A stretch of DNA of 32,000 bases from Nostoc sp. PCC 7120 = FACHB-418 (GCF_000009705.1 NC_003272.1:660001-692000), one strand, 5' to 3'; counted from the stretch's first letter, positions 4,868 to 26,524 are shown. Program-made: numbers and translations. Notes: generated by a model from the letters alone, not told the origin.

Positions 4868-5749
4868 TTAAACAGCCGCAGAAATAATTGCAGAACCAAC
4901 TGGTACAGAAGCATCCACCGCAGCACCATTAGTTAAAATAGGCTGGCGAGTTTTCAGATCAAATTTGTAGCCATGTGGCAAAATGTGTAGTTTTGCGCCA
5001 CAAATTGCTAAAGCTTCATCCCTGAGGATTTTATCCATATTGTTGTATGTAGACTCTGATTCATCCACAATTGTGACTGAACCTTGGCCAATGATTTCAA
5101 TTTGGCTGTCAGTCACGACCATAGCAGTATTCTCATCAATCCCAAATCCTAGTACGGCTGGTTCTCTAATCAAAGCTGTAATTAAGCGTCCCAAGCGTCC
5201 GCGTTCAGAAAAATGCTGGTCAATGACTACCCCAGGGAGAAAACCTAAACCTGGCCCCATTTCTACAATCTCTAAACGAGGATTGGTTTCTGAGTCACCT
5301 TCCACAATCATTTTATCTGGCATGACTGCCGCACCGGCACTTGTGCCACCAACAACGATACCTTCAGAGAAGCGTTTGTGAATTGCTGCATCAATTTCGG
5401 TGTCTTTGATGATGCTGGTAATCCTGGCTTGGTCTCCCCCAGTAAAAAATATACCAGTCGCTTTGGCGATCGCTTCCAGTGCAGTTGATGAAGACGCATC
5501 TTCACGGGTTTCTGTATCAATTATGCGAACATTTTCCGCACCCAAACGTTCAAACACTCTAATATAATTCTCTCCCACATCTCTGGGTAGTTCTGTCGCT
5601 GCCGTCATAATTACAATGTAGGCTTTTGTACCACCAGAACGCCGCACAAATTCCCGCAATATTTGCGAATCACCATCTTTATCTTCTGCACCACCAATAA
5701 TTACCAACTGCCGTTTGTCTTCACTTGCAGCCATAATATCTCCTACCAT
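4868..5749 (-). CDS. cphB2: cyanophycinase (peptidase S51), cph2-cluster copy
   Basis: Motifs seen are IIGGAEDK, FFTGGDQ, GGTSAGAAVM (Ser nucleophile context) and VIDQHFSERGRLGRL. An alternative and probably better start is ATG 5734, which has AGGAG at 5744-5740 with 5-nt spacing. Confidence 0.9.
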   Translation of the reverse strand: MVGDIMAASEDKRQLVIIGGAEDKDGDSQILREFVRRSGGTKAYIVIMTAATELPRDVGENYIRVFERLGAENVRIIDTETREDASSSTALEAIAKATGIFFTGGDQARITSIIKDTEIDAAIHKRFSEGIVVGGTSAGAAVMPDKMIVEGDSETNPRLEIVEMGPGLGFLPGVVIDQHFSERGRLGRLITALIREPAVLGFGIDENTAMVVTDSQIEIIGQGSVTIVDESESTYNNMDKILRDEALAICGAKLHILPHGYKFDLKTRQPILTNGAAVDASVPVGSAIISAAV

Positions 5750-6662: not shown

Positions 6663-8573
6663 ATGGTTCAGGAAACAAGCACCGATTTAGTCCGCATTAA
6701 TGCCAGAAAGACAGATGTATTTGATCTCTTCAACTGTCTGTATTATGTTGGTTCAAATCCCTATCTAGATACAGGGGCGCTAGTCTTTGATTTTGCTGTG
6801 GTGGAAGATAGAAAGCTTTTGCCTATTGAAGATTATATTACTAGAGTAGGCGATCGCTATCCCCATCTACGGGAGCAAAACTACGAATCCTATGCCCATT
6901 TATTTGCCCAAACTGTGTCAGAAGTGGGTAAACTAGACATGAATTTACACTTCCATCGCTGGAGTGTAAAACCGTACAGCAAATATACAAAAATTGCTGT
7001 TCAATCACTGCACGAACGCACAATCAGATCAGTTGTTTACCTAGTATGGGACTGGTTTGAAGCCATTAACCAAGATGATGACTTTTTCTGGGATGACCAG
7101 CTTGTCACCTTGCAAAATCGGTTTCGCCAATCTGTATACGGAGGCCCCACAGTTTACGCCTTATTGCGAACAGCCTACGAAAAAGGTATTCCCACCTTTT
7201 ATCTGTGGGACGAAGGATTAATGCAATACGGCTGGGGAAAAAAACATATCCGGGGTGTAGCCACAACCTTTAATTGCGACAGCCATATTGATTCTGATTT
7301 CACCACTCGTAAAGATGACTGCAAAGCCTTTCTCCACACTTTGGGTTTTCCAGTACCACAAGGTGAAATCGTCTATTCGCCAAAAGAAGCTCGACAAGTA
7401 GCCAAAGACATCGGCTATCCAGTAGCAGTTAAGCCAGTGGTAGGTCACAAAGGAATTGGTGTCACCGCAGATGTCAAAGATGTAGACGAACTTGAAGTTG
7501 CTTATGATAGAGCATTAGAAGCGATTCCTGAAAATGAACCCGCACGCATAATTGTTGAAAAAAGCATCAAAGGCAAAGATTTTCGCTTGCTATGTGTTAA
7601 TGGTCGATTTGTCGCCGCCACAGAACGTCATCCCGCATCGGTAGTTGGTGATGGTGACTCAACAATTTGGGAATTAATTCAGAAAGAAAACCGCAAAGCA
7701 GTGCGTTTAGACACTCCAACTTCACCGATGAGTAAGATTATCGTTGATGACGCAATGGAACACTATCTAGAAGAACAGCGCTTGTCATTAAAAACAGTAC
7801 TTGACAAAGGTGAAACTGTTCACTTACGGAAAGTTGCTAATCTTTCAGCCGGAGGGATGAGCATCAATGCTACTCATGCTATCCATGATGACAACATTAT
7901 CTTGGCGCAAGATATTGCTCAATATTTCCGTTTGACTTGTCTGGGAATTGATGTCATAGCTGAAGACCTTTCTGAGTCTTGGAAAGTTGGTAACTTTGCC
8001 ATCATCGAAATCAACGCTGCACCAGGTGTAATGATGCACCTTAACCCAGCAGTAGGTGAAAGTGTTGACGTACCTTCCCACATTTTAGAAACATTTTTTG
8101 AGTCTGGTTTAGATGCCAGAATCCCGATTATGACCTTTAATAAAATCTCTGTGGAGGAATTGCAAACCACAATAGACCACATTTTGTTGCAACATCCAGA
8201 ATGGACAATAGGGGCTGTTTGTCGTGATGCCGTTTTTGTCAACCGATCGCAAAAGGTACTGCGTGACGATTACAATAGCAACATCCAAAGTTTGCTACGT
8301 AATCCCAAGCTCGATTTATTAATTGCCGAATATCCAGAAGATACCCTAGAAGAAGACGGAATGTTTTATCAAGGGAGTAATTTGGTAGTTTTAGATAATC
8401 CCAGCGAAACAGAAATGATGTTGGCGCGGGATGTGTTCGATGGTTCTACCATCGTCATTAAAAAAGAAAAAGATGTTTCCATTCGGCGCAAAGGCCTAAT
8501 AGAAGACTACACATTAGGTGAAGATGAACCATTCACACGGGTTTATCTCAAAGAAATTGGCACCATCCTATAA
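6663..8573 (+). CDS. cphA2: truncated cyanophycin synthetase (CphA2-type, beta-Asp-Arg dipeptide polymerase)
   Basis: 636 aa. A CphA-like N-domain is followed by an ATP-grasp domain (YPVAVKPVVGHKGIGV, FRLLCVNGRFVAA, AIIEINAAPG). Where CphA1 carries the Mur-ligase P-loop, this protein reads RIPIMTFNKIS, and it ends about 250 aa short of CphA1 length. Confidence 0.88.
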   Translation: MVQETSTDLVRINARKTDVFDLFNCLYYVGSNPYLDTGALVFDFAVVEDRKLLPIEDYITRVGDRYPHLREQNYESYAHLFAQTVSEVGKLDMNLHFHRWSVKPYSKYTKIAVQSLHERTIRSVVYLVWDWFEAINQDDDFFWDDQLVTLQNRFRQSVYGGPTVYALLRTAYEKGIPTFYLWDEGLMQYGWGKKHIRGVATTFNCDSHIDSDFTTRKDDCKAFLHTLGFPVPQGEIVYSPKEARQVAKDIGYPVAVKPVVGHKGIGVTADVKDVDELEVAYDRALEAIPENEPARIIVEKSIKGKDFRLLCVNGRFVAATERHPASVVGDGDSTIWELIQKENRKAVRLDTPTSPMSKIIVDDAMEHYLEEQRLSLKTVLDKGETVHLRKVANLSAGGMSINATHAIHDDNIILAQDIAQYFRLTCLGIDVIAEDLSESWKVGNFAIIEINAAPGVMMHLNPAVGESVDVPSHILETFFESGLDARIPIMTFNKISVEELQTTIDHILLQHPEWTIGAVCRDAVFVNRSQKVLRDDYNSNIQSLLRNPKLDLLIAEYPEDTLEEDGMFYQGSNLVVLDNPSETEMMLARDVFDGSTIVIKKEKDVSIRRKGLIEDYTLGEDEPFTRVYLKEIGTIL

Positions 8574-11283: not shown

Positions 11284-13923
11284 TTAATAGCCTGATCTGG
11301 CTAAGTTTTTAAATTTGGTAAACTGTGGGTCAAATAGGAGTTTTACTGTACCTGTTGGGCCGTTGCGGTGTTTCGCTACAATGACTTCTGCCAGGCCGCG
11401 ATCTGGTGTATCACTGTTATAGTAATCGTCACGGTATAACATAATAACTAAATCCGCATCCTGCTCAATGGAGTTGTGAACAACAATGTTATTAGCAATA
11501 AAATTATGTAGCCCAGGAACTGTCAAATCAAACACTTCTTCCTCGCCACTATATTCAATTGAAACTATTTCATCCCAATAAACATCACTCTTGGCAAGAG
11601 TAAGCAATTCACTAGATTGAACAACTTCAGCAACTTTCAAAGCTCTTTCTCGACTCAAATTTGCTTTGTAAAGCGCCAAGCCACAATAAGATGTGCCAAT
11701 GTTTGAATGCAATTCTCTTGTTGTTAATTGCACAGATTGCATTGCAGGTACAACAATTTTTTTCCAAACATCTTTGGGGATTATATCTCTATTAGTATTG
11801 TGAATGCAATTTTCTAGATATTCAAAAATTTGTTGTAGTGAATTTAGTTTGTATTCTCCTACTGCTCCAACCTTTTTAATAAATAAATCAAGGTCAGGCT
11901 TACCAGTTATTTTTACATGATACTGATTTCTCCCCTTCCCCACTTGAGGCACTAGCTTGAGTGTCGCATTAATACCAAGCTTTAACAAAAGAGTTTGTAC
12001 ATCAACAGCTAATCTGTAACTACTAGTTGCATAATATGCAATAGGTCTTGGTTTTTTCCCTCCGACTAATTTAATTGAACCATCTGTACTCCACAGATGT
12101 CTAAGAAAGCAAGATATTAACTCTATTGGTTGTGAGAACAATTCTTGAGGGACAAATTTTTCGTAAGACCTTAAACCAAAAACACCAAGAGAGTCTAGCC
12201 ATTTTGCTACAGGATTTCTGAGATTACGAGTTAAGCGTTGTGTTGCAGACAAATAAACTTGATACCAGCTGCGTTCAGGGGAAATTCTTGGAGTAATTGC
12301 ATCCCCAAAAACTTCTTTTGCTAAGAAAAAAACATTCTCAGCTAAATCTATCTCTCTGGTAGTGTACTGTATGGCATGACGTGGCAATGTACAACCATCA
12401 CCAATTAAATGCCCTAATAATGCCACTTCAGCATAAGTCATGGTTTGTTTATCAAAACTGGGTATATGCCGTGGTAAACATAGATGTTGTCTAATACTTA
12501 ACTCATCTAATCTACGCCAGCCATGAATTGTCAGGAATTTGTGATTAGCTGTAGCACGAATTTTGCACCCCTTACGAGTTGTTAATGTAAATACAGGCTT
12601 TACACCTGTAGAAAAGGCATTGCTGACTATTGCTTTTTCTAATTTTAATGTTGCTTGATTTAAAGCCCAAATAGCAAAACCAGACTTACCGACTAACTCC
12701 CTAATTGGTATCTGTAAACCGCCCGGCGCTAAAGTTACTAAACTATCACCAGTTAGACAACCTGATTCTCTTAAGTCAGACAACATAGGACGCTTGTTGG
12801 TACGCGCTTCTACGCCACGACTCAGCTGAGATAGAGCTATTACAGGTACAGATAATTCTCTAGCTAAACCTTTGAGAGAACGGGTAATTTTAGATAACTC
12901 CTGTACGCGGTTATCTCCGCCTCCTTCCATTAATTGCAGATAATCTATCACTATCAAGCCTAGTTCTACACCCTGTTCGGCTTGTAATCTTCTAGCTTGA
13001 GAGCGCATTTGGGTGACGGTAATATTCGGCGTGTCATCAATAAAAATGGGCATTTCGGACAGCATACTAATCGCCCGGCTTAATGGTTCCCATTGTGTTT
13101 GACTGAGGCGACCACTCCGCAGATAGCCGCTTTCAATTTGGGCTTCACTAGCAAGTAAACGTTGTACCAGTTGCTCTTTGGACATTTCTAAACTGAAAAC
13201 AGCAACAGGTAGCTTCATCGTAGCCGCGATATTATTAGCTAGGTTTAGGCAAAATGCGGTTTTTCCCATTGACGGTCTTCCAGCGACGATGATTAAATCA
13301 GAACGCTGAAATCCACTAGTCATAGCGTCTAAATCATAAAAGCCGCAGGGAATACCAGGCAAGGCAATACCTTGATTGCGCTCCTCAATTTCTTGGAAGT
13401 TGTTAATTAAGGTGTCTGCAATGTGAACTAAACCTGATTGGGGACGTTCTTGAGTAACGCCAAAAACTTTCTGTTCTGCTTGGTCTAGTACTATGGGTAA
13501 TTCTTTTTCTGTCTCGTAACCGAGATGGACAATTTCATTGCCAGCTTTAATTAATTGCCGTCGCAGGTATTTTTCCATCACCAACCCTGCTAAGGCATCG
13601 ATATTCACAGCTGAGACTGTACGGTCTACCAAGGTGGCTAATTTGTTTCTACCACCAATGCGGGTCAGCAACTCATTATCAGTTAGCCAACTTGTGACTG
13701 ACAGCAAATCTGTAGGTTTACCTTGGGCGTGGAGACGCAGCGCAGCTTGATAGATATCTCTGTGGGCGCTAATATAAAAAGCTTCTGTAATAAGGACTTC
13801 GCTTACTCGACCAATCGCTTCTGGATCTAGTAGAATACCCCCCAAAATTGCTTCTTCTGCCTCGATATTTTGGGGTGGGAGGCGATTACTACCGTCGCCT
13901 TGAAAACTCAATTCTTCAGCCAT
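11284..13923 (-). CDS. dnaB: replicative DNA helicase DnaB, intein-containing precursor (879 aa)
   Basis: Has the DnaB N-domain, Walker A GRPSMGKT, Walker B IVIDYLQLM and the C-terminal motif KHRNGPTG. The extein total of 450 aa is interrupted after RESG. Confidence 0.95.
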   Translation of the reverse strand: MAEELSFQGDGSNRLPPQNIEAEEAILGGILLDPEAIGRVSEVLITEAFYISAHRDIYQAALRLHAQGKPTDLLSVTSWLTDNELLTRIGGRNKLATLVDRTVSAVNIDALAGLVMEKYLRRQLIKAGNEIVHLGYETEKELPIVLDQAEQKVFGVTQERPQSGLVHIADTLINNFQEIEERNQGIALPGIPCGFYDLDAMTSGFQRSDLIIVAGRPSMGKTAFCLNLANNIAATMKLPVAVFSLEMSKEQLVQRLLASEAQIESGYLRSGRLSQTQWEPLSRAISMLSEMPIFIDDTPNITVTQMRSQARRLQAEQGVELGLIVIDYLQLMEGGGDNRVQELSKITRSLKGLARELSVPVIALSQLSRGVEARTNKRPMLSDLRESGCLTGDSLVTLAPGGLQIPIRELVGKSGFAIWALNQATLKLEKAIVSNAFSTGVKPVFTLTTRKGCKIRATANHKFLTIHGWRRLDELSIRQHLCLPRHIPSFDKQTMTYAEVALLGHLIGDGCTLPRHAIQYTTREIDLAENVFFLAKEVFGDAITPRISPERSWYQVYLSATQRLTRNLRNPVAKWLDSLGVFGLRSYEKFVPQELFSQPIELISCFLRHLWSTDGSIKLVGGKKPRPIAYYATSSYRLAVDVQTLLLKLGINATLKLVPQVGKGRNQYHVKITGKPDLDLFIKKVGAVGEYKLNSLQQIFEYLENCIHNTNRDIIPKDVWKKIVVPAMQSVQLTTRELHSNIGTSYCGLALYKANLSRERALKVAEVVQSSELLTLAKSDVYWDEIVSIEYSGEEEVFDLTVPGLHNFIANNIVVHNSIEQDADLVIMLYRDDYYNSDTPDRGLAEVIVAKHRNGPTGTVKLLFDPQFTKFKNLARSGY
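11473..12759 (-). mobile_element. DnaB intein (429 aa, residues 389-817) with LAGLIDADG homing-endonuclease domain
   Basis: Splice junctions are RESG|CLTGDSLVTL (TGT at 12759-12757) and NNIVVHN|SIEQDAD (AAC at 11475-11473). Block B is ATANHKFLT. The two LAGLIDADG motifs are LLGHLIGDGC and FLRHLWSTDGS. Confidence 0.92.
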
Positions 13924-15519: not shown

Positions 15520-15942
15520 AATCGTTATCTCCCTAGCCAGTCAATATTTTTAGTCTATTAGCGATCGCCAATTCTGGTCATTAACTTCAGCTTGAGAAAA
15601 GCTATATAAAGTACCAAGATTTTATTTTTGCTGTTTCACTGTCTAGAAACCATGATATTATACAACCGTAATTACACTGGAAATGTATTTAAAAATTACA
15701 AATATACTTATTATTGATCAGTGATAATTCTCTGGGAGGAAGTATAACTGTAAAGTTAGATTAAATGTGTTCTTTTTTGCTCGTAAAATGCCGAAAATCT
15801 ATAAATATACAGATATTAACTTCTATCTTTAACTATAAATTTTATAAGTTTTGATAAAGTTGCAATATTTTCTACGTATCTACTTCCTAGCCAGAGGAGT
15901 AGAGTCTCATTTCTACCTCAGACCACCACGATAGGAGAATAT

Positions 15943-16173
15943 ATGACTACTCACTACAGATACACTTACACCAGTGTTTATCGTCAAACAGAAACTACAG
16001 TTAAGCAAATCGTAGATAGGATCCTCCGTTCTGGCAAAATGAGTCCTCAAGACCATGCTTTGCTAACATCTGCCGTTTTTAATCATCATGATATTGATGA
16101 ACAAGAACGTCGCCAAATTAATCGGATTTTTGACCATATTCAGACAGGGCAATTAAAGCTGATTAACTGGTAG
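15943..16173 (+). CDS. small hypothetical protein (76 aa) with Thr/Tyr-rich N-terminus
   Basis: AGGAG at 15933-15937 lies 5 nt before the ATG. The N-terminus reads MTTHYRYTYTSVYRQTETT, and the helical C-terminal part reads DEQERRQINRIFDHIQTGQLKLI. Confidence 0.6.
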   Translation: MTTHYRYTYTSVYRQTETTVKQIVDRILRSGKMSPQDHALLTSAVFNHHDIDEQERRQINRIFDHIQTGQLKLINW

Positions 16174-16180
16174 TATAAAA

Positions 16181-16196
16181 ATTTATTAGTAGTATC
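16181..16196 (+). promoter_or_regulatory. direct repeat copy 1 (ATTTATTAGTAGTATC) upstream of the glycosyltransferase operon
   Basis: Matches 16299-16314 at 15 of 16 positions. A third GTAGTAT core lies at 16170-16176. Confidence 0.3.
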
Positions 16197-16298
16197 TTCA
16201 TCAGGTGAGGCGATGTTTTCCCATATCATTGTTTTTATGGCTATTGCCCAGCCCACCCTAGATATATTTCAAAAATAAAGCATAAATACCACATCAAG

Positions 16299-16314
16299 AT
16301 TTATCAGTAGTATC
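16299..16314 (+). promoter_or_regulatory. direct repeat copy 2 (ATTTATCAGTAGTATC), 35 nt upstream of the GT4 start
   Basis: Matches 16181-16196 at 15 of 16 positions. Confidence 0.3.
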
Positions 16315-16348
16315 AGGCTTAGTTAAATTATCACAACAAAATTGAATC

Positions 16349-17545
16349 GTGAATCTACAGGCTAACAAATCCAGGCTAAAAGTTTCCATAGTTGTCAGCG
16401 ATTTATCCAGTGCTGGAGCAGGAAGATGGGGAGGCGGTTCTGTACGTTCCTTTCTGTTAGCTCAAGCACTGCAAAGGCTAAACTATCAAGTCGAAATTTT
16501 AGGATTTGTCTTTGGTGAAGCAGCAGTGTTTCCCCAATCAGAAATTCAGATAAATCAATTCATCGGTTATAATTATCCAAAATTTTTAGTTTCAGCCAAT
16601 CAACTCTTAAAAAGAATTGATGGTGATATTATTTATGCAATGCGGCCTAAACCTACAACCTTAGGTCTATCTTTATGGAAAAAAATCAGTACTCGTCAGC
16701 CAGTAATTTTAGATATAGATGATTGGGAACTAGGTTGGCATGGTGGAGAAAACTGGCAATATCGCCCTTCATTAAAACAACTTTATCGAGATATTTTCAA
16801 GCCGGATGGAGCATTACGCAATCCGGATCATCCTTTGTATTTAAAATTTCTAGAAGGAATTGCGCCAAAAGCTAATGTAGTTACGATTCATACTAAATTT
16901 TTACAAGAACGCTTTGGTGGTGTATACATACCTAATGGTAAAGATACGGATTTATTTAATCCTATTAACTACGATGCAGAAGAAAGCCGAGCTTGTTATG
17001 GGTTATCCGACTACAGAATTTTAATGTTTCCTGGCGCACCCAGACCATATAAAGGTGTGGAAGATGTGTTAATGGCGTTAGATATTCTCAATCAGCCTGA
17101 TTTGAGACTAGTGATTGTTGGCGGTAGCCCTTATGATGACTATGATGCTCAACTTAGAGAAAAATGGGGACGTTGGATTATCCAGTTACCAAAATCTCCA
17201 CCAACGGAAATGCCCAAAATTGTGGCAGCTGCTCACATTATCGTTGTTCCCCAAAGGAATACACCAGCAGCTTTGGCACAGTTCCCCTTGAAACTAACAG
17301 ATGGGATGGCGATGGCCAAGCCAATTCTAGCCACAAGAGTGGGGGATATTCCCGAAATCGTTGGAGAAACGGCTTATTTAGTTGAGCCGGCTTGTCCTGA
17401 TGAAATAGCCAGGCAAATTAAGTTGATATTTGCAGATTTGGATGGAGCGAGCGATCGCGGTCGCCAAGCTAGAATAAGATGTATAGAAAAGTACAGTATA
17501 TCGGCTATGGCGACTACCCTACAGTCAGTTATTGCTAATTTGTAA
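16349..17545 (+). CDS. glycosyltransferase, GT-B fold (family 4-like)
   Basis: 398 aa. It starts like a GT4 N-domain (KVSIVVSDLSSAGAGRWGG). The C-terminal domain reads FPGAPRPYKGVEDVL...VIVGG...PLKLTDGMAMAKPILATRVGDIPEIVGE. The start codon is GTG. Confidence 0.8.
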   Translation: MNLQANKSRLKVSIVVSDLSSAGAGRWGGGSVRSFLLAQALQRLNYQVEILGFVFGEAAVFPQSEIQINQFIGYNYPKFLVSANQLLKRIDGDIIYAMRPKPTTLGLSLWKKISTRQPVILDIDDWELGWHGGENWQYRPSLKQLYRDIFKPDGALRNPDHPLYLKFLEGIAPKANVVTIHTKFLQERFGGVYIPNGKDTDLFNPINYDAEESRACYGLSDYRILMFPGAPRPYKGVEDVLMALDILNQPDLRLVIVGGSPYDDYDAQLREKWGRWIIQLPKSPPTEMPKIVAAAHIIVVPQRNTPAALAQFPLKLTDGMAMAKPILATRVGDIPEIVGETAYLVEPACPDEIARQIKLIFADLDGASDRGRQARIRCIEKYSISAMATTLQSVIANL

Positions 17546-17652
17546 GTATAAATAGATAAAAGAGGATAATTGCTAGCAAATATAATGAGAAATTAATGAA
17601 TACCTTGATACTTTATGTTAAAAATGACTCTAGTGTTACCCTCATAAACTAA

Positions 17653-19893
17653 ATGCTTACCAGACGCATCTTACTAAAATTTGCGAAACCCTATCCAGGA
17701 TTAATTCTACTGACGATAATATTAGGATTCTCTGGAGCTTTATTTAATGGGATTAGTACAGCACTGATTGTACCAGTAATTTTAAGAATAGTAGGACAAC
17801 CAGTAGACTTAAAAGGCGCTCCGGGGTTGCTCAAAGCCATTATGACCCCATTCGATAATGTGCCAGAAAATTATCGGATTGCCGCAATGGCAGGAGCAAT
17901 CATCCTGACAATTGCCTTAAAAAACTTAGCCACATATACCAGCACGCTATCATCAAGTTCTCTAACTCGCAGACTTACTGCGGATATGCGAGAGGCAGGC
18001 ATCGATTTATTACTAAATATTGATATAGATTATTATGCCAAAACCAAAGTTGGTGATTTAATCAATCGTTTGGGAGGTGAAATTGGCCGTGCCGCTAGTT
18101 ATGTAGGCAATATCATCAGATTAGTTATTGTCAGCGTTACAATTTCCGTTTTTGTCTGTCTATTACTATCAATTTCTTGGCAATTAACTATCATGGCGAC
18201 AATCTTGCTGTCGCTAGTAACATTAGTCAATCAATTTGCAATTAGTCGTTCTCGTCAGTTTGGCAAGATATTGAGTGAAATGTCGAAAGCCTACTCCATA
18301 GCTGTGCTAGAAACTCTCAATGGCATTCGTCTTGTCAAGACTACAGCGAACGAAAGGAAAGAATTTAATAGAATTAAACGACTAATTCGTGAGCGCGAAT
18401 CCGCAGATTTTAAAGCTCAGATGAACTCCAACGCCATCACTCCCTTAAGTGAATTTTTGGGAGTTACATCTTTGTTAATAATTGTGCTGTTAAGTAAAAC
18501 TTTTTTCGCTGATCAAATTAGTACACTTTCGGCTGTTCTGTTAACATATTTACTAATATTATTACGTCTACTACCCCTAGTTTCTCAACTCAATAGTCTC
18601 CGTAGTAGCTTTGCTAGCATGAATGCTAGTGTAGACTCGGTAACTGAACTACTCAGATTAGATGATAAACCATTCTTAATAAATGGAAAAATTGCCTACA
18701 ACGGCTTAAAAACAGGGATTACGTTTAAATCTGTTTCCTTCACTTACCCTGGTCATGATAAACAAGTACTCAAAGATGTAACTTTAAAACTACCCCGTGG
18801 CACAACATTAGCATTGGTAGGAGGCTCAGGAGCAGGTAAATCTACCTTGGCAGACTTATTACCCAGATTTTATGACCCAACTGGTGGCTGTATTATTTTA
18901 GATGATACCGATTTGCGTGAGTTTGATATCACCTCTATCCGTAAGTGTATGGGTATCGTTAGCCAGGATACTTTTCTCTTCAATAATTCAGTGCGGAATA
19001 ATATTGCCTATGGTAAACAAGAAGCCACAGAAGAAGAGGTTGTAGCAGCTGCTAAACGGGCAAATGCCTACGAATTTATTAGTAAACTGCCCCAACAATT
19101 TGATACTATGATTGGCGATCGCGGTGTCATGTTATCGGGAGGACAAAGACAAAGATTAGCGATCGCTCGCGCTCTCTTACAAAACCCTGATATTCTGATT
19201 CTCGACGAAGCAACTAGCGCTTTAGACACCGTTTCGGAACGTTTGGTACAAGGAGCGCTAGAAGAACTCAGCCGCGACAGGACAACTCTAGTTATTGCTC
19301 ACCGTCTGTCTACAGTCCGCAAAGCCGACCAAATCGCTGTCTTGGAGCAAGGAAAAGTCGTAGAGGTGGGAACCCATGAAGAGCTATTACAAAAGGGTGG
19401 TTACTACTCACGCCTTTATGGAATGCAGTTTAGCAATAATGCTGAAACCACAAATAGAACCAATCAAAGCTTATTGCGAATTTCCCATGAAATCCGTACA
19501 CGCCTCCACTCCATGATTGGTGTCTTACGGCTGTTATTGGATGATGTTACAAACAATAACCAAGAACACCAAGAATTGATTGAAGACTCATACAAGTCAG
19601 CATTTAAAATTATCAATACTCTAGACATTTTTGAAGATAGTCTACAACAGCAAGTCTATTATTTATCTACGTCACTATTGGAGGATAATCAAAATAACAA
19701 TACCCTACTCGAACACCTGAAAAATATCAATGAATTTCGGATACAGTTCAACAATATATTAGTCTCTCTGCGGTCATTGACTGATAGCACAGGAGAGTTA
19801 GAACAAAGTGAGTATTTATTGTTAAAAGAATCTCTAAATGTATCGATGAATTTACTCGATTGTTTAGAAAATGTTGAAACAGGCATCTTCTAA
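17653..19893 (+). CDS. ABC exporter half-transporter (TMD-NBD, MsbA-like) with C-terminal HisKA/DHp-like extension
   Basis: Has a six-helix TMD, Walker A GGSGAGKST, signature LSGGQRQ, Walker B ILILDEATSALD and the H-loop IAHRLST. An extra ~150 aa follow the NBD. Confidence 0.9.
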   Translation: MLTRRILLKFAKPYPGLILLTIILGFSGALFNGISTALIVPVILRIVGQPVDLKGAPGLLKAIMTPFDNVPENYRIAAMAGAIILTIALKNLATYTSTLSSSSLTRRLTADMREAGIDLLLNIDIDYYAKTKVGDLINRLGGEIGRAASYVGNIIRLVIVSVTISVFVCLLLSISWQLTIMATILLSLVTLVNQFAISRSRQFGKILSEMSKAYSIAVLETLNGIRLVKTTANERKEFNRIKRLIRERESADFKAQMNSNAITPLSEFLGVTSLLIIVLLSKTFFADQISTLSAVLLTYLLILLRLLPLVSQLNSLRSSFASMNASVDSVTELLRLDDKPFLINGKIAYNGLKTGITFKSVSFTYPGHDKQVLKDVTLKLPRGTTLALVGGSGAGKSTLADLLPRFYDPTGGCIILDDTDLREFDITSIRKCMGIVSQDTFLFNNSVRNNIAYGKQEATEEEVVAAAKRANAYEFISKLPQQFDTMIGDRGVMLSGGQRQRLAIARALLQNPDILILDEATSALDTVSERLVQGALEELSRDRTTLVIAHRLSTVRKADQIAVLEQGKVVEVGTHEELLQKGGYYSRLYGMQFSNNAETTNRTNQSLLRISHEIRTRLHSMIGVLRLLLDDVTNNNQEHQELIEDSYKSAFKIINTLDIFEDSLQQQVYYLSTSLLEDNQNNNTLLEHLKNINEFRIQFNNILVSLRSLTDSTGELEQSEYLLLKESLNVSMNLLDCLENVETGIF
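19432..19893 (+). other. HisKA (DHp)-like domain appended to the ABC exporter; no HATPase_c domain
   Basis: LLRISHEIRTRLHSMIGVLRLLLDD...QELIEDSYKSAFKIINTLDIFEDSLQ parallels the histidine-kinase H-box consensus xSHELRTPLxxIxGxxxLL. The His codon is at 19486-19488. No N/G1/G2 boxes follow. Confidence 0.6.
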
Positions 19894-19927
19894 AATGCTC
19901 ACAGAATTATTTGCCCTAAAGTAAACA

Positions 19928-21130
19928 ATGAAAAATAAATATATTTTCTATAGCAGAATCATTTCCCAGAAACCAGATACAGCTCACGAAATTCATGACG
20001 TTCTTTGTGCTAACGGCGCAGCTAATTTAGGATATGCCTCTGTTTTAGTATATCCAGAAACTAAACGAGGTTCTGGGAATACATTAGATTTACTTTACCC
20101 TTTCCAACCGAAACAGCCAGATCAGAGTTTTGTAGATTTTTACGATGTGCAAGATAAGCTAAAAGTGGCATCTTTACCAATGCCCTGGCCGATTGATTGT
20201 GTAGGGGGTAAGTTTACAGCATCTAGTACAGTTGTAACCCGATATTATCTACCATTCCATCTCCTAAAATATACAAAAATTGTTCACACTAGAGACTGGA
20301 ATTTTGTCCAAGCAGCAATCAAAAACTGCATTCCTACTATCTACGAACGCCACTATTTTCAAAAGGAAAAAGTTCCCAAAGCCATTGCTGAAAGTCCATT
20401 TCTACAAGTTGCTGTCACCCAATCAGAAATTATAAGACAAAGTTTGATTGAACAGGGATTTCCCCCAGAAAAAGTTGTTTGGGTACATAACGGATTTGAT
20501 CAATCATTTTTATTACGACAATCGGAACAAGCTACAGCATGGCGCAAAGAATTACTCAAAGATGAACTTCAGTCGCTAGTAGTTTATTCTGGTGCTTTAT
20601 ACCCCTTTAAGGGCATTGATGTTTTAATTGATGCAGCCAAAGAATTACCACAAGTTCAGTTTGCCATTACAGGGGGTAAGACAGAACAAGTAACAGCTTA
20701 TCAACAATTGGCTAAAGATAAACAAGTAGAAAATGTCAAGTTTCTAGGTTGGATATTGCCACGCCAACGCTTAGTCAGCCTATTTCAAGCTGCTGATATT
20801 TTGGTTCATCCCCACTGCTCTGGCAAGTCTGCTAATTTCACTAATCCTGTGAAATTCTTCCAATATATGGCTTCTGGAACTCCCATAGTGATTACAGAAA
20901 TTCCTCCGTTAATGCCTTTTAAAGATATGCCTTTAGCTGCTGTATGGTGTGAACCGGATAATCCTTACCAACTGGCTAAAGCACTGAAGCAAGCATTAGA
21001 AATTTATCCGAGAAAAATAGAAGGTTACACAAATAATGTTGAATTGGCGAAGCCATTTTCTTGGGAAAATAGAGCCGAAAAAATTCTCAGTTACGTTGAT
21101 GAATCTTTCCGTCCACAACTCATAACTTAA
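19928..21130 (+). CDS. glycosyltransferase, GT-B fold (family 4-like)
   Basis: 400 aa. The C-terminal domain reads VVYSGALYPFKGIDVLIDAAKELPQVQFAITGG...FLGW...ADILVHP...PVKFFQYMASGTPIVITEIP. Confidence 0.75.
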   Translation: MKNKYIFYSRIISQKPDTAHEIHDVLCANGAANLGYASVLVYPETKRGSGNTLDLLYPFQPKQPDQSFVDFYDVQDKLKVASLPMPWPIDCVGGKFTASSTVVTRYYLPFHLLKYTKIVHTRDWNFVQAAIKNCIPTIYERHYFQKEKVPKAIAESPFLQVAVTQSEIIRQSLIEQGFPPEKVVWVHNGFDQSFLLRQSEQATAWRKELLKDELQSLVVYSGALYPFKGIDVLIDAAKELPQVQFAITGGKTEQVTAYQQLAKDKQVENVKFLGWILPRQRLVSLFQAADILVHPHCSGKSANFTNPVKFFQYMASGTPIVITEIPPLMPFKDMPLAAVWCEPDNPYQLAKALKQALEIYPRKIEGYTNNVELAKPFSWENRAEKILSYVDESFRPQLIT

Positions 21131-21152
21131 ATTTAAAATTAAATTATAAATA

Positions 21153-22127
21153 ATGAATATTGGCTCTATGGATATACAGAAAATTGGCATGATTACCAGC
21201 TACCGCAATCTGGCAAAAAGAGCAGATTGGTTGTGGCAACAAACACCCCAACAATTTGGTATTTGGCAAAATATTCAGATACAAGCACTGTCAGGAAAAC
21301 CAGATTTTCTGTTAATGTATCAATTTGATTTTCCTAAAGATAATCAGCAAACATCTTTGATAGATAAGCTAAGGCAAAAACTACAAAATCCACAAGTCAA
21401 TGTTGAATCCCTACTCAGAGATGTTCCCAAAGAAAAAATTATTTATCTATTACGTGAACCTCCCCTAGATGAGATTGTAGAGAAAAATAAACGCTATTAT
21501 CAAGAAGCAAAAAAGTATTGCGGTTATATTTCTGGCCCTGATGATTTTGCCCCTAAGCCTGATTATATGCCGGCAATTTGGTATCACAACAACTCATTTC
21601 GGGAACTAAATGAAATGCCTGTTCCCGAAAAAGTCTTTCCTTGCAGTTGGATAACTTCTGGTATTAGCCGGACTGTTAACCATCGTCGCCGATTAAAATT
21701 TGTGGAATTAATACAAGCTAGCGAAGTTAAGTGTGATGTATATGGACGCGACTTACCTATATGGGCAAAATCATTAGGAGAACTGGGTAACAAGTGGTAT
21801 GGAATGGCTCCATATTATTACAACTTATCAATTGAAAATTATGCCGACAATGATTGGTATGTGAGTGAAAAATTATGGGATGCTCTGTTGGCGTGGTGTT
21901 TGCCGATTTATTATGGTGGGCCAGCCGCAGATAAGCTATTACCCCCAGGCAGTTTTTTACGTTTACCCAGTTTGGATGAAAAAGGTATTGCTTACATTCA
22001 AGAAGTGACGGCTACCCCTGATGCTTGGTATGCTGCCAAGGATGCGATCGCCGAAGCTAGACAACTTATCTTACACAAGTTAAATTTACTCAACTGGTTG
22101 TCAGAATTCGTTACTCAATTTTCCTAG
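21153..22127 (+). CDS. GT10-like glycosyltransferase (alpha-1,3/4-fucosyltransferase-type motif)
   Basis: YNLSIENYADNDWYVSEKLWDALLAWCLPIYYGGPAADKLLPPGSFLRL aligns with the GT10 signature FxLSFENSxxxxYVTEKxxDAxxxxxIPIYWGxP...P.SF. The start is uncertain (ATG at 21153, 21168 or 21189). Confidence 0.7.
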   Translation: MNIGSMDIQKIGMITSYRNLAKRADWLWQQTPQQFGIWQNIQIQALSGKPDFLLMYQFDFPKDNQQTSLIDKLRQKLQNPQVNVESLLRDVPKEKIIYLLREPPLDEIVEKNKRYYQEAKKYCGYISGPDDFAPKPDYMPAIWYHNNSFRELNEMPVPEKVFPCSWITSGISRTVNHRRRLKFVELIQASEVKCDVYGRDLPIWAKSLGELGNKWYGMAPYYYNLSIENYADNDWYVSEKLWDALLAWCLPIYYGGPAADKLLPPGSFLRLPSLDEKGIAYIQEVTATPDAWYAAKDAIAEARQLILHKLNLLNWLSEFVTQFS

Positions 22128-22168
22128 ACAGTGTTTGATAAATCTTATTAATCAATGGTGAGTAATAT

Positions 22169-23164
22169 ATGGATGGTATTTGTACCCTTGCAAATGATCG
22201 AGTTTACGACCAGTTAATTGCTCTACTTAATAGTATTGAAGCAATTTACGGGACGCAAATGCCTGTTTGCATTTATCCCTATGACGACGAGACAACAGAA
22301 ATTGCTGCGGAAATTGCCCGTCGTCCTAATGTACAGCTTTATGATCATCAAGATTCAATCAAGCAATGGGATGAATTTGTTTGTCGTGTTTGGGATACTC
22401 ATCCTACAGCTAAAGCACATTGGCAGAAAATTAGTGAGGAAAAATATTTTCGAGTTGGTACTCATCGCCGTTTCTGTGCCTTTGATGGGCCTTTTGATCG
22501 CTTTGTCTATATGGATGCAGACACATTATTAATGAGTCCCTTAGATGCGATTTTTCAGCAATTAAATCACTATGATTGGGTAGTTCATGACTTCCAATAT
22601 AAGGATTTATCTCATGTTTATAATGTTAATTCTCCCAAATTAAAAGAGTTATTTACCAAAGAAAAATTACAAACAGAGATATTTTGTTCGGGATTTTACG
22701 CTGCTAAAAAAGATTTATTCACTGCTAAAAATCGAGAAACTATTATAAATAAACTGGGTCAGGGAGAGGCTGAGGTTCTTTATGATATGGCTCCTGACCA
22801 AACTGTACTTAATTATATGGTTATGCGGTTAGGCATTTCTAATTATAATTTCGCTCGCAGTTTATCCCATCAAGAAAAAACTGGTTGTTGTGTAACTTCT
22901 CCCCATTTTGAAGTGCGAGATAACATTTTATATGACAAAGGTAATCGACTCACATATATTCATTATATTGGGCTAAGATCAGCTTTATTTAGACAAGTTT
23001 GTGCTGGAGAAAATATTGACTTTCCTTATCGGGATGTGTTTTTGTATTACCGCTATCTGCATGAACCAAACCAATGCCCACAGTTCACAACAAAGCCAAA
23101 AGTTATCGAGACTTATCCGAGTCTAGGTAAAAGAATTTTAAAAAAATTAGGTTTAACAGTATGA
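22169..23164 (+). CDS. putative GT-A fold (GT8-like) glycosyltransferase, paralogue 1
   Basis: The N-terminus reads ICTLANDRVYDQLIALLNSI, and the DxD motif sits in FVYMDADTLL. It is clearly paralogous to the next ORF. Confidence 0.6.
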   Translation: MDGICTLANDRVYDQLIALLNSIEAIYGTQMPVCIYPYDDETTEIAAEIARRPNVQLYDHQDSIKQWDEFVCRVWDTHPTAKAHWQKISEEKYFRVGTHRRFCAFDGPFDRFVYMDADTLLMSPLDAIFQQLNHYDWVVHDFQYKDLSHVYNVNSPKLKELFTKEKLQTEIFCSGFYAAKKDLFTAKNRETIINKLGQGEAEVLYDMAPDQTVLNYMVMRLGISNYNFARSLSHQEKTGCCVTSPHFEVRDNILYDKGNRLTYIHYIGLRSALFRQVCAGENIDFPYRDVFLYYRYLHEPNQCPQFTTKPKVIETYPSLGKRILKKLGLTV

Positions 23165-23165
23165 G

Positions 23166-24101
23166 GTGAAAGATATGAGTCGGGGAATATATATTATAGC
23201 CAATGATAAAGTTATTGATCAGGCGATCGCACTACTAAATAGTATCCGATTACATGACGCAGATACGCCAGTTGTGATGATTCCCTATGATGATAATTAT
23301 CACAAGATAGCAGACATCCTTAAGCTAAACTATGGAGTTCAACTTTATGATGATTTAGCTTTTATAGACCAACTTTCTCAAAGATTACACGAAACTTTCG
23401 GTGGGCGCTTTTTTGCCCGTCCCAATCAATTTCGTAAGCAAGCCTGTTGGTTTGGACCTTTCGACGAATTTTTATATATTGATACTGATATTGTTGTCTT
23501 TGAAAAAATCATTGATAATCTCAACTACCTTGCAGAAGCAGATTTTATTTGCTGCGATTATCAACATTCTGGCGGTATAAAAAACGTTTTTACTTCTAAA
23601 GTTCTAGAGGATAAAGTTTTTACTGAGGCAGAAGTTAAAGATATATTTAATGGCGGTTTTTGGGGTTCTAAGAAAAACTTAATCTCGGCAGATGATTTAT
23701 TTGCCACTTTTAGCGAGTGTGCAGCACATCCCGAATATTTTGACTTTTCAGAAAAGACTTCTGATCAACCAATCATTAATTATATGTTGCTCAAGCGCAT
23801 TCAGCGCCGCTTCAATATTGTGCGCCGGGAAGGTAAAGCACCAGGTAATTGGGCTGGTTCTTCTCATTTCCAAACTCAGGGTAACTTAGTATTTGATCCT
23901 CATATTAATCAACCCCTGCAATATCTGCATTGGGCTGGTATTCGCATTCAACCAGGCTGTCCCTATTGGGAAATATGGGAACATTATCGAAATCTGAATC
24001 CCCATTTACCTGCATTAACAATACCTATACCAGCAAAACAAAGCCAGTGGGAAAAAACCTTAAACCGCATCAAAACTCAATTACGACAGCTTACAAAGTA
24101 G
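23166..24101 (+). CDS. putative GT-A fold (GT8-like) glycosyltransferase, paralogue 2
   Basis: The N-terminus reads IYIIANDKVIDQAIALLNSI, and the DxD motif sits in FLYIDTDIVV. GTG 23166 abuts the upstream stop (TGA 23162-23164). ATG 23175, with GAGG at 23163-23166, is the more likely start. Confidence 0.6.
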   Translation: MKDMSRGIYIIANDKVIDQAIALLNSIRLHDADTPVVMIPYDDNYHKIADILKLNYGVQLYDDLAFIDQLSQRLHETFGGRFFARPNQFRKQACWFGPFDEFLYIDTDIVVFEKIIDNLNYLAEADFICCDYQHSGGIKNVFTSKVLEDKVFTEAEVKDIFNGGFWGSKKNLISADDLFATFSECAAHPEYFDFSEKTSDQPIINYMLLKRIQRRFNIVRREGKAPGNWAGSSHFQTQGNLVFDPHINQPLQYLHWAGIRIQPGCPYWEIWEHYRNLNPHLPALTIPIPAKQSQWEKTLNRIKTQLRQLTK

Positions 24102-24389
24102 TTGAAATTAAAGCCAAAAATCCTGATTTTAGAGGCTTTCTGGCTTTAACAATCTATGACAATTGATAAACACCGAACTCTTTTCTAATAGATGAATTGA
24201 AACAATCATGACATGAGTTGGTGAAAAATGCCGGGCATACATCAACCCTTTAATGATTTTTTTCCTTTATCTTGCCTTTGTTGAAGGATATTACGAGCAG
24301 GTATGGGAAAGTCAACTTCAACATAGTTAACATGAGGATGGTTAAACTTTATATCCGGCTTTTCATGGCAAACAACAACTACTCTAAAG

Positions 24390-24718
24390 TTAACGTGAGT
24401 TCGACGAATCAAAAAACAGCAGGAGGTAGAGCAGTTAAGCCTTGGGCATAAATATCGAGAGATGATTTATGAGGTAAATTAAGTATAAGCAGCCAAATCA
24501 GGCATCAAGTTTACCAAAAAGTTGAAAACACTTCGATGTCTAGAATGTTCAATTTTACACAGGTTTTTGAGATGGTCATTAACTGACTCAATCACGGCAC
24601 GTTTGCGTGAAAGAATTTTATCAATCAGTTTTATCATCAACCTGTCGAACTCCTAAGAAAACAGAATAGTTTCTTTCGCCCTTCCCACAGGTGCGCCGCC
24701 GTTGGAGACTCACGTTAA
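24390..24718 (-). mobile_element. internally deleted, MITE-like remnant of an IS982-family element
   Basis: The terminal repeat TTAACGTGAGTTCGACG lies at 24390-24406. The opposite end, CTCACGTTAA, lies at 24709-24718. The interior keeps only the 3' end of the transposase gene. Confidence 0.7.
24407..24637 (-). pseudogene. IS982-family transposase C-terminal fragment
   Basis: The reverse strand reads [52 protein letters not shown]. This is near-identical to residues from about 128 of the 25900-26505 transposase. A premature TAA lies at 24481-24479. Confidence 0.7.
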
Positions 24719-25827: not shown

Positions 25828-26524
25828 TTAACGTGAGTTCGACGGGTTAATTTAGGTGAAGAAAAAAGCTGAGACTGAAATAAGAAGAAAAATTAAAGGA
25901 TGTCTCAGCTATGTCCTACACGTACAGGAGAAATTACAGGCATAAGCTTCATCGATTCTACGCCAATCGAAGTTTGTCATAGATGTAGCGCCCACGCAAA
26001 TAAGGTATTTAAAGGATTAGTGGAATGGGGGAAGAATTCTGTAGGGTGGCACTATGGATTTAAACTGCATTTAGTTATTAATGACAAAGGAGAATTACTG
26101 GCATTCAAACTAACGAGTGCAAATACCGATGACCGAAAACCAGTTCCAGATATGACTCAAGATTTGATTGGTAAACTGTTTGGTGACAGAGGATATATTT
26201 CACAAAAACTTTTTGAGGAGTTATATGAGCGGGGGTTAGAGTTAGTTACCAAATCTAAAAAGAACATGAAAAACCGCTTGGTTAAACTCATTGATAAAAT
26301 TCTGTTACGCAAGCGTGCAGTCATTGAGTCGGTTAATGACCACCTGAAAAACCTGTGTCAAATTGAACATTCTCGCCATCGCAGCGTTTTCAACTTTTTG
26401 GTCAACTTAATGGCTGGTTTAGCTGCCTACACTTATTTGCCTCAGAAACCCTCGCTTGATATTTATCCCAAAGGCTTACCTGCTCTACTTACTGCTGTTT
26501 TTTAGTTCGTCGAACTCACGTTAA
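25828..26524 (+). mobile_element. defective IS982-family insertion sequence (~0.7 kb, 5'-deleted transposase)
   Basis: The inverted termini are TTAACGTGAGTTCGACG (25828-25844) and CGTCGAACTCACGTTAA (26508-26524). The element is about 300 bp shorter than typical family members. Confidence 0.75.
25900..26505 (+). CDS. IS982-family DDE transposase, N-terminally truncated (201 aa)
   Basis: Motifs seen are GISFIDSTPIEVC (D1), GWHYGFKLHLVINDKGELLAF, FGDRGYIS (D2) and [28 protein letters not shown] (E). It lacks the ~90 N-terminal residues of full-length family members, so it is likely non-functional. Confidence 0.75.
   Translation: MSQLCPTRTGEITGISFIDSTPIEVCHRCSAHANKVFKGLVEWGKNSVGWHYGFKLHLVINDKGELLAFKLTSANTDDRKPVPDMTQDLIGKLFGDRGYISQKLFEELYERGLELVTKSKKNMKNRLVKLIDKILLRKRAVIESVNDHLKNLCQIEHSRHRSVFNFLVNLMAGLAAYTYLPQKPSLDIYPKGLPALLTAVF

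Follow-up and report, generated by a model that had tools for sequence, protein, structure and literature searches.

The stretch of DNA analyzed here, 32,000 nucleotides of the chromosome of Anabaena/Nostoc sp. PCC 7120 (positions 660001-692000; hereafter the window, from whose first letter coordinates are counted), carries a seven-gene operon, asr0581 to alr0587, that encodes five glycosyltransferases (GTs) and one exporter of the ATP-binding cassette (ABC) type. We favour, as an evenly balanced proposition, that this operon assembles a defined heteroglycan and exports it by means of a membrane-anchored carrier and the ABC protein Alr0583. Three proteins encoded in the window are identical to BAB72541, BAB72543 and BAB72544 of this strain. 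The evidence consists of the gene content, a single transcript, conservation in relatives with a core and an accessory part, the cytoplasmic location of the GTs and the fold of the exporter.

Six of the genes lie on the plus strand as alr0582 (16349-17545), alr0583 (17653-19893), alr0584 (19928-21130), alr0585 (21153-22127), alr0586 (22169-23164) and alr0587 (23166-24101), separated in 5' to 3' direction by 107, 34, 22, 41 and 1 nt. A previous reading of this DNA made from its sequence alone (the sequence-only reading) had given these six open reading frames (ORFs) and their gaps with exact coordinates, and searches of Pfam and NCBIfam returned the families that it had guessed, although the genes are really ordered GT4-ABC-GT4-GT10-paralogue-paralogue. 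It had described a six-gene operon, however, and thereby missed a seventh gene, asr0581, which lies inside the same transcription unit (TU). TU00373, of 8756 nt, spans 15668-24424 on the plus strand (chromosome 675668-684424), contains asr0581-alr0582-alr0583-alr0584-alr0585-alr0586-alr0587 with a 5' untranslated region of 275 nt and a 3' untranslated region of 323 nt, and was defined from RNA sequencing (RNA-seq), transcription start site (TSS) data from differential RNA-seq (dRNA-seq) and terminator prediction (PMC10287535). The co-transcription which the sequence-only reading had presumed is thus borne out by one 8.76-kb TU. The operon TSS at 15668 (plus strand, chromosome 675668, nTSS_675668f in Data Set S1 of PMC10287535) is back-to-back with that of gloB, and a TATTAT box was read in the sequence at 15656-15661, 7-12 nt 5' of the TSS. 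Consensus promoter and terminator scans performed at or below chance (33 against 31.7 expected, and 2 against 5.9 expected, respectively) and were not used.

Conservation was assessed by a motif-seeded, and hence motif-limited, scan of 185,579 species, each represented by a single genome; this returned 383 confirmed loci with a relative of alr0586, and all counts given here refer to the best 80 of these 383 and were obtained by tblastn and ORF clustering. The 80 loci are all labelled cyanobacterial or uncultured and belong mostly to filamentous or large-genome forms. Orthologues of the six proteins were found at 65-97% identity in 42-80 of the 80 loci, and alr0582-alr0587 are therefore real genes and not chance ORFs. 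Synteny in relatives, on which the sequence-only reading had staked its case, was also found: all six genes are colinear in 42 loci, and a core of five (the first GT4 gene or GT4a, the ABC gene, the GT10 gene and the two paralogues, R2821a and R2821b) in 53. The ABC gene is present in 59 loci, and the cluster adjoins gloB in 41. The full cluster occurs throughout the Nostocales as well as in Microseira and a Leptolyngbyaceae bin, and the core also in some Oscillatoriales. GT4a, present in 58 loci, is directly 5' of the ABC gene in every occurrence; GT4b, the second GT4 gene, is the least conserved member (45 loci), other GTs replacing or accompanying it in some relatives. The trio GT10-R2821a-R2821b was detected in 72 loci, and three reduced clusters (L031, L046 and L057; individual loci of the set are cited by such numbers) keep the ABC gene and R2821a/b and have lost GT10. 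Genes inserted in relatives encode GT2, further GT4, GT8-like and GT11 (alpha-1,2-fucosyltransferase-like) enzymes, pyruvyl transferases and an epimerase/dehydratase, and in Coleofasciculus sulfotransferase genes follow the trio. Loci for surface glycans typically show such variation in accessory genes.

The first gene of the operon, asr0581 (15943-16173, plus strand), was recognized from the sequence and from TU00373. It encodes a 76-aa protein with no match in Pfam or NCBIfam, whose C-terminal ~55 residues are conserved (RRQINRIFDHIQTGQLKL) and whose N-terminus is variable and, in PCC 7120, rich in Thr, Tyr and Ser. A search with a hidden Markov model (HMM) detected asr0581 at 19 of the 80 loci; at 18 of these it shares the strand of the cluster and heads it at the 5' end, a position kept even where extra GT genes are inserted before the GT4 gene. 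The remaining match, a weak one in L055, is downstream of the trio and on the other strand. The protein is possibly a regulator, a chaperone or an adaptor.

Alr0583 is a type IV (MsbA-fold) ABC exporter half-transporter of 746 aa and a paralogue of HepA, in which a transmembrane domain (TMD; ABC_membrane PF00664, 68.7 bits, residues 71-304) is fused to a nucleotide-binding domain (NBD; ABC_tran PF00005, 117.8 bits, residues 373-522). PDB sequences matched it at E <= 1e-40 in 255 cases, and all 60 of the matches listed are ABCB-, ABCC- or MsbA-type exporters; the best half-transporter with a solved structure is MsbA (9bd6, E 6e-96). Its best curated matches are exporters of glycans or lipid-linked glycans, namely HepA, MsbA and the glucan exporters NdvA/ChvA (330 and 256 bits), which supports a role in glycan export. 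Alr0583 is also the sole protein of the operon with hydrophobic membrane-spanning segments, none being present in the five GTs (no 19-residue window with a mean hydropathy >1.6). Assembly in the cytoplasm followed by flipping through the ABC protein, as suggested by the sequence-only reading, is consistent with this distribution, because the GTs lack membrane segments and Alr0583 is the only membrane protein.

Behind the NBD, Alr0583 carries a C-terminal extension (residues ~600-746; 19450-19890, plus strand) made of two tandem degenerate helical hairpins that resemble HisKA, the dimerization and histidine phosphotransfer (DHp) domain. Searched alone, the extension scores 27.9 bits with HisKA against a gathering threshold (GA) of 26.9, so that the first hairpin just passes. 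Its length is kept in more than 50 orthologues, and only one hairpin is found in Microseira and in L065. At the H-box position, 27 of 60 orthologues have Tyr, 24 have His and 9 have another residue. UniRef names the protein 'histidine kinase'. We rejected the possibility that it is a true histidine kinase, given that Pfam detects no HATPase_c or kinase ATPase domain and that the H-box His is not conserved; the extension is more plausibly a dimerization, docking or regulatory module. In Calothrix rhizosoleniae SC01, a diatom symbiont, the exporter is encoded by separate TMD and NBD-HisKA ORFs (L050, 2707-4991), which may be a sign of a frameshift or pseudogene, or else a true form with two genes.

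Alr0582 (GT4a) is a GT4-family enzyme of GT-B fold and retaining type (Glycos_transf_1, 64.6 bits against a GA of 26.4), and Alr0584 (GT4b) is a second member of the same family (66.7 bits against 26.4). The nearest relatives of both with solved structures (MshA, BshA, PimB' and Alr3699; E 1e-10 to 1e-5) are generic GT4 enzymes and allow no specific assignment. Alr0585 belongs to the GT10 family of alpha-1,3/4-fucosyltransferase-like enzymes by its C-terminal domain (PF00852, 39.2 bits against a GA of 23.9). Its nucleotide-binding motif NLSIEN…YVSEKLWDAL aligns with those of the plant FucTA (9s6a, E 1.5e-6) and the Helicobacter pylori FucT (2nzw, E 9e-5) and is invariant in 24 orthologues.

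The two paralogues at the end of the operon, Alr0586 and Alr0587, share 31% identity and belong to the Npun_R2821/R2822 family (NF045582, 449.9 and 338.8 bits, respectively, against a cut-off of 250), with a putative GT-A fold akin to that of retaining GT8 enzymes. The alr0587 gene is present in 77 of the 80 loci. Similarity to GT8 and to Mannosyl_trans3 is weak: Alr0586 matches Pfam GT8 at 21.5 bits, below the threshold of 24.3, and Alr0587 does not match it. Alr0586 has an invariant DxD (D116, D118) and an invariant His265, and Alr0587 keeps a D-x-D (YIDTD) and a conserved His. The AlphaFold2 model of Alr0586 reached a predicted local distance difference test (pLDDT) score of 90.6, and its best Foldseek matches were glycogenin, XXYLT1, LgtC and LARGE1 (all GT8), CmsA/Ktr4 and WbbM, at template modelling (TM) scores of 0.4-0.6 and 10-16% identity, with GT15 equal in score. 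Profile and sequence searches of the family against PDB retrieved only the DxD region of glycogenin, at an E of about 1. Both GT8-like proteins end in a basic tail (…KRILKKLGL), as do LgtC-type peripheral membrane GT8 enzymes. They resemble LgtC, glycogenin and XXYLT1 in a putative GT-A fold with DxD and a distal His, but differ from these by the low identity and the sub-threshold Pfam score, and form a small family of their own, with 600 clusters at 50% identity among 1.84 billion.

HMM searches of the 32-kb window found no initiating phosphoglycosyl transferase (PGT; Bac_transf, Glycos_transf_4), no Wzx, no Wzy, no outer-membrane export gene and no gene for nucleotide-sugar biosynthesis, as the sequence-only reading had stated, no synthase and no sugar-related genes other than those of the operon; nor is any ORF of the operon a known initiating or polymerizing enzyme. 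An ABC-2 permease (ABC2_membrane) was likewise found neither in the window nor recurrently in the 80 loci. Among the 146 non-redundant ORFs located within 4 kb of the clusters, PGT, Wzx, Wzy, outer-membrane polysaccharide export (OPX) and ABC-2 proteins did not recur in the 25 families listed, rarer single cases being possible. The annotated accessory genes of relatives include no PGT, Wzx or Wzy, and nucleotide-sugar genes are not a recurrent feature around the 80 loci either. The operon also contains no GT2 and no GT with a membrane domain. The locus is therefore not of the Wzx/Wzy, the synthase or the Wzm/Wzt type, although an initiator missing from the 32-kb window says nothing of the rest of the genome.

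Flipping of lipid-linked glycans by MsbA-fold half-transporters is nevertheless established, both for MsbA with the Waa core transferases and for PglK. In H. pylori, the flippase Wzk has an MsbA fold and acts in a pathway with GT10/GT11 fucosyltransferases, the genes for O-antigen synthesis, WecA and WaaL being scattered elsewhere on the chromosome (PMC2841628). With these precedents and that of HepA, the claim of the sequence-only reading that the operon fits no standard scheme went too far. The operon resembles the Wzk and PglK systems in having an ABC flippase instead of Wzx/Wzy or Wzm/Wzt and cytoplasmic GTs that include GT10 (and GT11 in relatives); it differs by its weak PglK score (228 against 1000), and any undecaprenyl-pyrophosphate carrier, ligase or oligosaccharyltransferase partner is hypothetical here. 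The locus works like known systems yet lies outside the curated exporter families, with a HisKA-like tail that looks unprecedented and a GT8-like family that is uncharacterized.

What follows on acceptor and sugars, on how and in which direction transport proceeds and on where the product ends up is inferred from these observations. The five soluble or peripheral GTs, using nucleotide sugars, would build a hetero-oligosaccharide or short repeat unit stepwise at the cytoplasmic face of the membrane. Alr0585 probably adds alpha-linked fucose from GDP-fucose and would act together with the two GT4 and the two GT8-like retaining enzymes; fucosylation appears probable because of the GT10 in the operon and the GT11 in relatives. 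The acceptor, most likely undecaprenyl (pyro)phosphate and less likely a glycerolipid or lipid A, would be a membrane-anchored carrier whose priming is encoded outside this locus. A homodimer of Alr0583 would then flip or export the finished glycan across the cytoplasmic membrane at the expense of ATP. Accessory GTs and decorating enzymes vary from strain to strain, for which reason the most likely product is an envelope glycan that is exposed at the surface and strain-variable; it would be made in vegetative cells too. A bolder version of this proposal, which we hold to be rather unlikely, is that the Alr0583 subfamily represents a new class of glycan exporters whose DHp tandem docks a two-component partner or senses the state of the envelope and thereby gates export, and that the trio makes a fucosylated glycolipid or glycoconjugate not described so far, which many large-genome cyanobacteria would have in common and even the Azolla symbiont, with its eroded genome, would have kept.

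Several findings weigh against assembly of one heteroglycan on a carrier exported by Alr0583. Its best curated match, the equivalog HepA_fam (NF045513), aligns end to end with residues 5-593 but at 586 bits, below the cut-off of 725; the scores with the MsbA models TIGR02203 (451 bits against 602) and NF008381 (381 against 867) and with PglK (NF050066, 227.6 against 1000) fall below cut-off as well, and Alr0583 is therefore a HepA paralogue outside every characterized equivalog. Taken alone, its TMD matches MsbA 9bd6 at E 1.8e-9 and a TmrAB-type drug exporter at E 6e-10, and the substrate class is unreadable from the sequence because the TMD matches drug exporters as well as MsbA. Fucose as the donor sugar of Alr0585 is assumed from its family, and the AlphaFold model of this protein was unusable (pLDDT 34, from an alignment containing only sequences at least 72% identical). 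The trio stands without the ABC gene in 13 loci, among unrelated neighbours (at least 5 kb and up to ~9 kb upstream examined), in Crocosphaera, Xenococcaceae, Coleofasciculus, Symplocastrum and others, unicellular lineages included, so the two halves of the operon need not serve one product. Full-text literature searched with the locus tags of PCC 7120 and N. punctiforme (Npun_R2820-R2826) contained nothing beyond a table of a 2007 comparative paper in which Alr0582 (chromosome 676349-677545) and Alr0584 (679928-681130) are given as waaG homologues (PMC2211374), and a keyword search for HepA, MsbA and fucosyltransferase in cyanobacteria gave nothing relevant.

The trio-only loci are an argument for an explanation that is unlikely but by no means negligible, in which two functionally separate modules share one transcript: the trio would modify an acceptor for which no exporter of its own is required (one in the cytoplasm or among the membrane lipids, or else a glycan served by unlinked machinery), and GT4a with the ABC protein (and GT4b) would make and export another product. 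The constant junction of GT4a with the ABC gene, and the retention of ABC and R2821a/b without GT10 in L031, L046 and L057, point in the same direction. Against it, the two modules are colinear and tightly spaced in 53 of the 80 loci across several orders and are co-transcribed in PCC 7120, and the evidence from trio-only loci covers their neighbourhoods, an ABC orthologue perhaps lying unlinked elsewhere in those genomes. Quite unlikely, in our view, is direct export by Alr0583 of an oligo- or polysaccharide that is soluble and without a lipid link. NdvA and ChvA, half-transporters of the same fold, export cyclic beta-glucan made in the cytoplasm without a polyprenol carrier, and HepA is often taken to export the heterocyst envelope polysaccharide (HEP) directly as well. 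Such a route would agree with HepA as the closest curated family (586 bits), with the NdvA/ChvA scores and with the lack of a recurrent lipid-priming enzyme at the 80 loci. The glucan systems, however, depend on one giant processive synthase, whereas the operon has five small distinct GTs of non-processive type, without a processive synthase or a GT with a membrane domain, and these suggest a defined heteroglycan, which is normally anchored. A pathway of the lipopolysaccharide (LPS) core type is decidedly unlikely; in it the GTs would extend lipid A as the Waa enzymes do, and Alr0583 would be the cyanobacterial lipid A-core flippase. It would account for the missing PGT, Wzx and Wzy because such a pathway does without polyprenol initiation. 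The classic transferases of the outer core are GT4 and GT8-like enzymes, and the operon resembles MsbA with the waa genes in combining GTs of these types, which act there on a lipid acceptor without polyprenol initiation, with an ABC half-transporter that flips the product. The listing of Alr0582 and Alr0584 as waaG homologues (PMC2211374) and the match to MsbA 9bd6 fit as well. On the other hand, Alr0583 remains below the MsbA cut-off and scores higher with HepA, its TMD is as close to drug exporters as to MsbA, and MsbA has no C-terminal extension of this type. The distribution is also restricted (only 383 confirmed loci in 185,579 species genomes, and 600 clusters in the R2821 family), therefore unlike that of an essential LPS step, and the ABC gene is not beside the trio in many taxa.

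Two further explanations are less probable still. A differentiation-specific envelope pathway, which would give heterocysts, akinetes or hormogonia another HEP-like system and at which the sequence-only reading had hinted, we consider very improbable. The operon and the HEP island of HepA (alr2835) belong to the same organism and are both GT-rich loci around a fused TMD-NBD exporter, with HepA as the best curated match of Alr0583, and one Leptolyngbyaceae locus has three prepilin-type genes directly upstream, reminiscent of hps; a modest rise in expression after nitrogen step-down also speaks for such a system. The HEP island, however, includes an initiating transferase of its own, hepC, and its induction in proheterocysts is hundreds-fold. 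A hepC-like initiating gene is absent from the asr0581-alr0587 operon, which is nearly constitutive and whose exporter remains below the equivalog cut-off and has the extra ~150-aa HisKA-like tandem. In the RNA-seq series of Flaherty et al. (PMC3141674), the fold changes of the six genes lie between 1.2 and 6.7 at 12-21 h following nitrogen step-down: alr0586 rises most (6.7-fold at 21 h), alr0583 changes 1.2-, 1.6- and 1.4-fold at 6, 12 and 21 h, and housekeeping neighbours change ~2-fold, whereas hepA increases from 0.00 to 18.84 RPKM (reads per kilobase and per million reads mapped) within this series. With this mild induction the operon behaves unlike a heterocyst-specific envelope locus, and nitrogen step-down, put forward by the sequence-only reading as an inducing condition, does not stand out as one. 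The ~50 nt 5' of the TSS, which were read by eye with no motif search, showed, beside the TATTAT -10 box, neither an NtcA (GTAN8TAC) nor a DIF1 (TCCGGA) motif. Moreover, the full cluster is also found in cyanobacteria that form no heterocysts (Microseira, Leptolyngbyaceae) and the trio in unicellular Crocosphaera, and the NCBIfam Hps models score only 20-28 bits. The most improbable of the explanations considered is a glycosylated peptide or protein system in which the product of asr0581, or another protein, is glycosylated and exported by Alr0583 in the manner of a glycocin. A conserved small ORF does head the operon, with a hydroxyl-rich N-terminus in PCC 7120, and ABC exporters of the same fold move peptides, the NHLP bacteriocin exporter models scoring ~300 bits. 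We nevertheless rate asr0581 low as a glycosylation substrate because its orthologues conserve the helical C-terminal part alone and not the Thr/Tyr/Ser-rich N-terminus; the protein also lacks a leader, a double-glycine motif, a peptidase domain and Cys, and is detectable in only 19 of the 80 loci.

PCC 7120 is a genetic model for multicellular cyanobacteria, and here it offers a seven-gene operon without experimental record that is conserved beside housekeeping genes across the Nostocales and partly into unicellular lineages. Strain-variable, fucose-bearing envelope glycans, of which the product of the operon is probably one, govern the adsorption of phages, recognition through lectins in symbioses with plants and in lichens, the properties of sheaths and biofilms and the immunological activity of cyanobacterial LPS. 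The locus is a tractable case of glycan movement by HepA-type ABC exporters and of the role of a kinase-less HisKA-like domain on a transporter. It leaves current pathway schemes standing and establishes no new category of pathway.

Some relatives of the cluster have unusual neighbours. In Coleofasciculus (L069, 4143-8876; L073, 291-5489; L077), a protein of 1577-1757 aa with an N-terminal GT2 domain, a two-partner secretion (TPS) domain and a C-terminal CHAT protease domain is encoded directly upstream of the trio. The prepilin-type genes of the Leptolyngbyaceae bin (L065, 48-2598) are three consecutive genes with N-terminal methylation motifs placed directly upstream of GT4a-ABC. An ORF cluster termed c10 (~257 aa, no match in Pfam or NCBIfam) lies just downstream of R2821b in 19 loci (e.g., L005, 13049-13822); it also occurs at trio-only loci (L069, L078) and is absent from PCC 7120. 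Locus L004, labelled Leptolyngbyaceae, encodes proteins 84-95% identical to their counterparts at the Anabaena locus, flanking L9 and GloB among them, and is probably a mis-binned Nostocaceae contig. Mis-binning is likewise suspected for a 'Methylacidiphilales' metagenome-assembled genome that carries a GT10 75% identical to that of the operon (P0196).

The other genes of the window have housekeeping roles or roles unconnected with the operon. Upstream of it, the window encodes DAHP synthase, an FKBP protein, the replicative helicase DnaB, ribosomal protein L9, GloB and a cyanophycinase-like peptidase beside an ATP-grasp enzyme; Rfam and tRNA scans of the window were empty. The dnaB gene (all0578, 11284-13923, minus strand) is split by an intein with a LAGLIDADG homing-endonuclease domain. 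The cyanophycinase-like S51 peptidase (4868-5749, minus strand) adjoins the 636-aa ATP-grasp protein (6663-8573, plus strand), with which it may constitute a cyanophycin-related pair. Downstream come two genes for hypothetical proteins, a remnant of IS982, an ABC1-kinase gene and one for a HEAT-repeat protein. The remnant, located between the operon and the ABC1-kinase gene (25900-26505, plus strand), encodes a truncated IS982-family transposase of 201 aa that covers model positions 63-241 of 243, and it is apparently absent from the closest relative (L001), whose flank is shorter.

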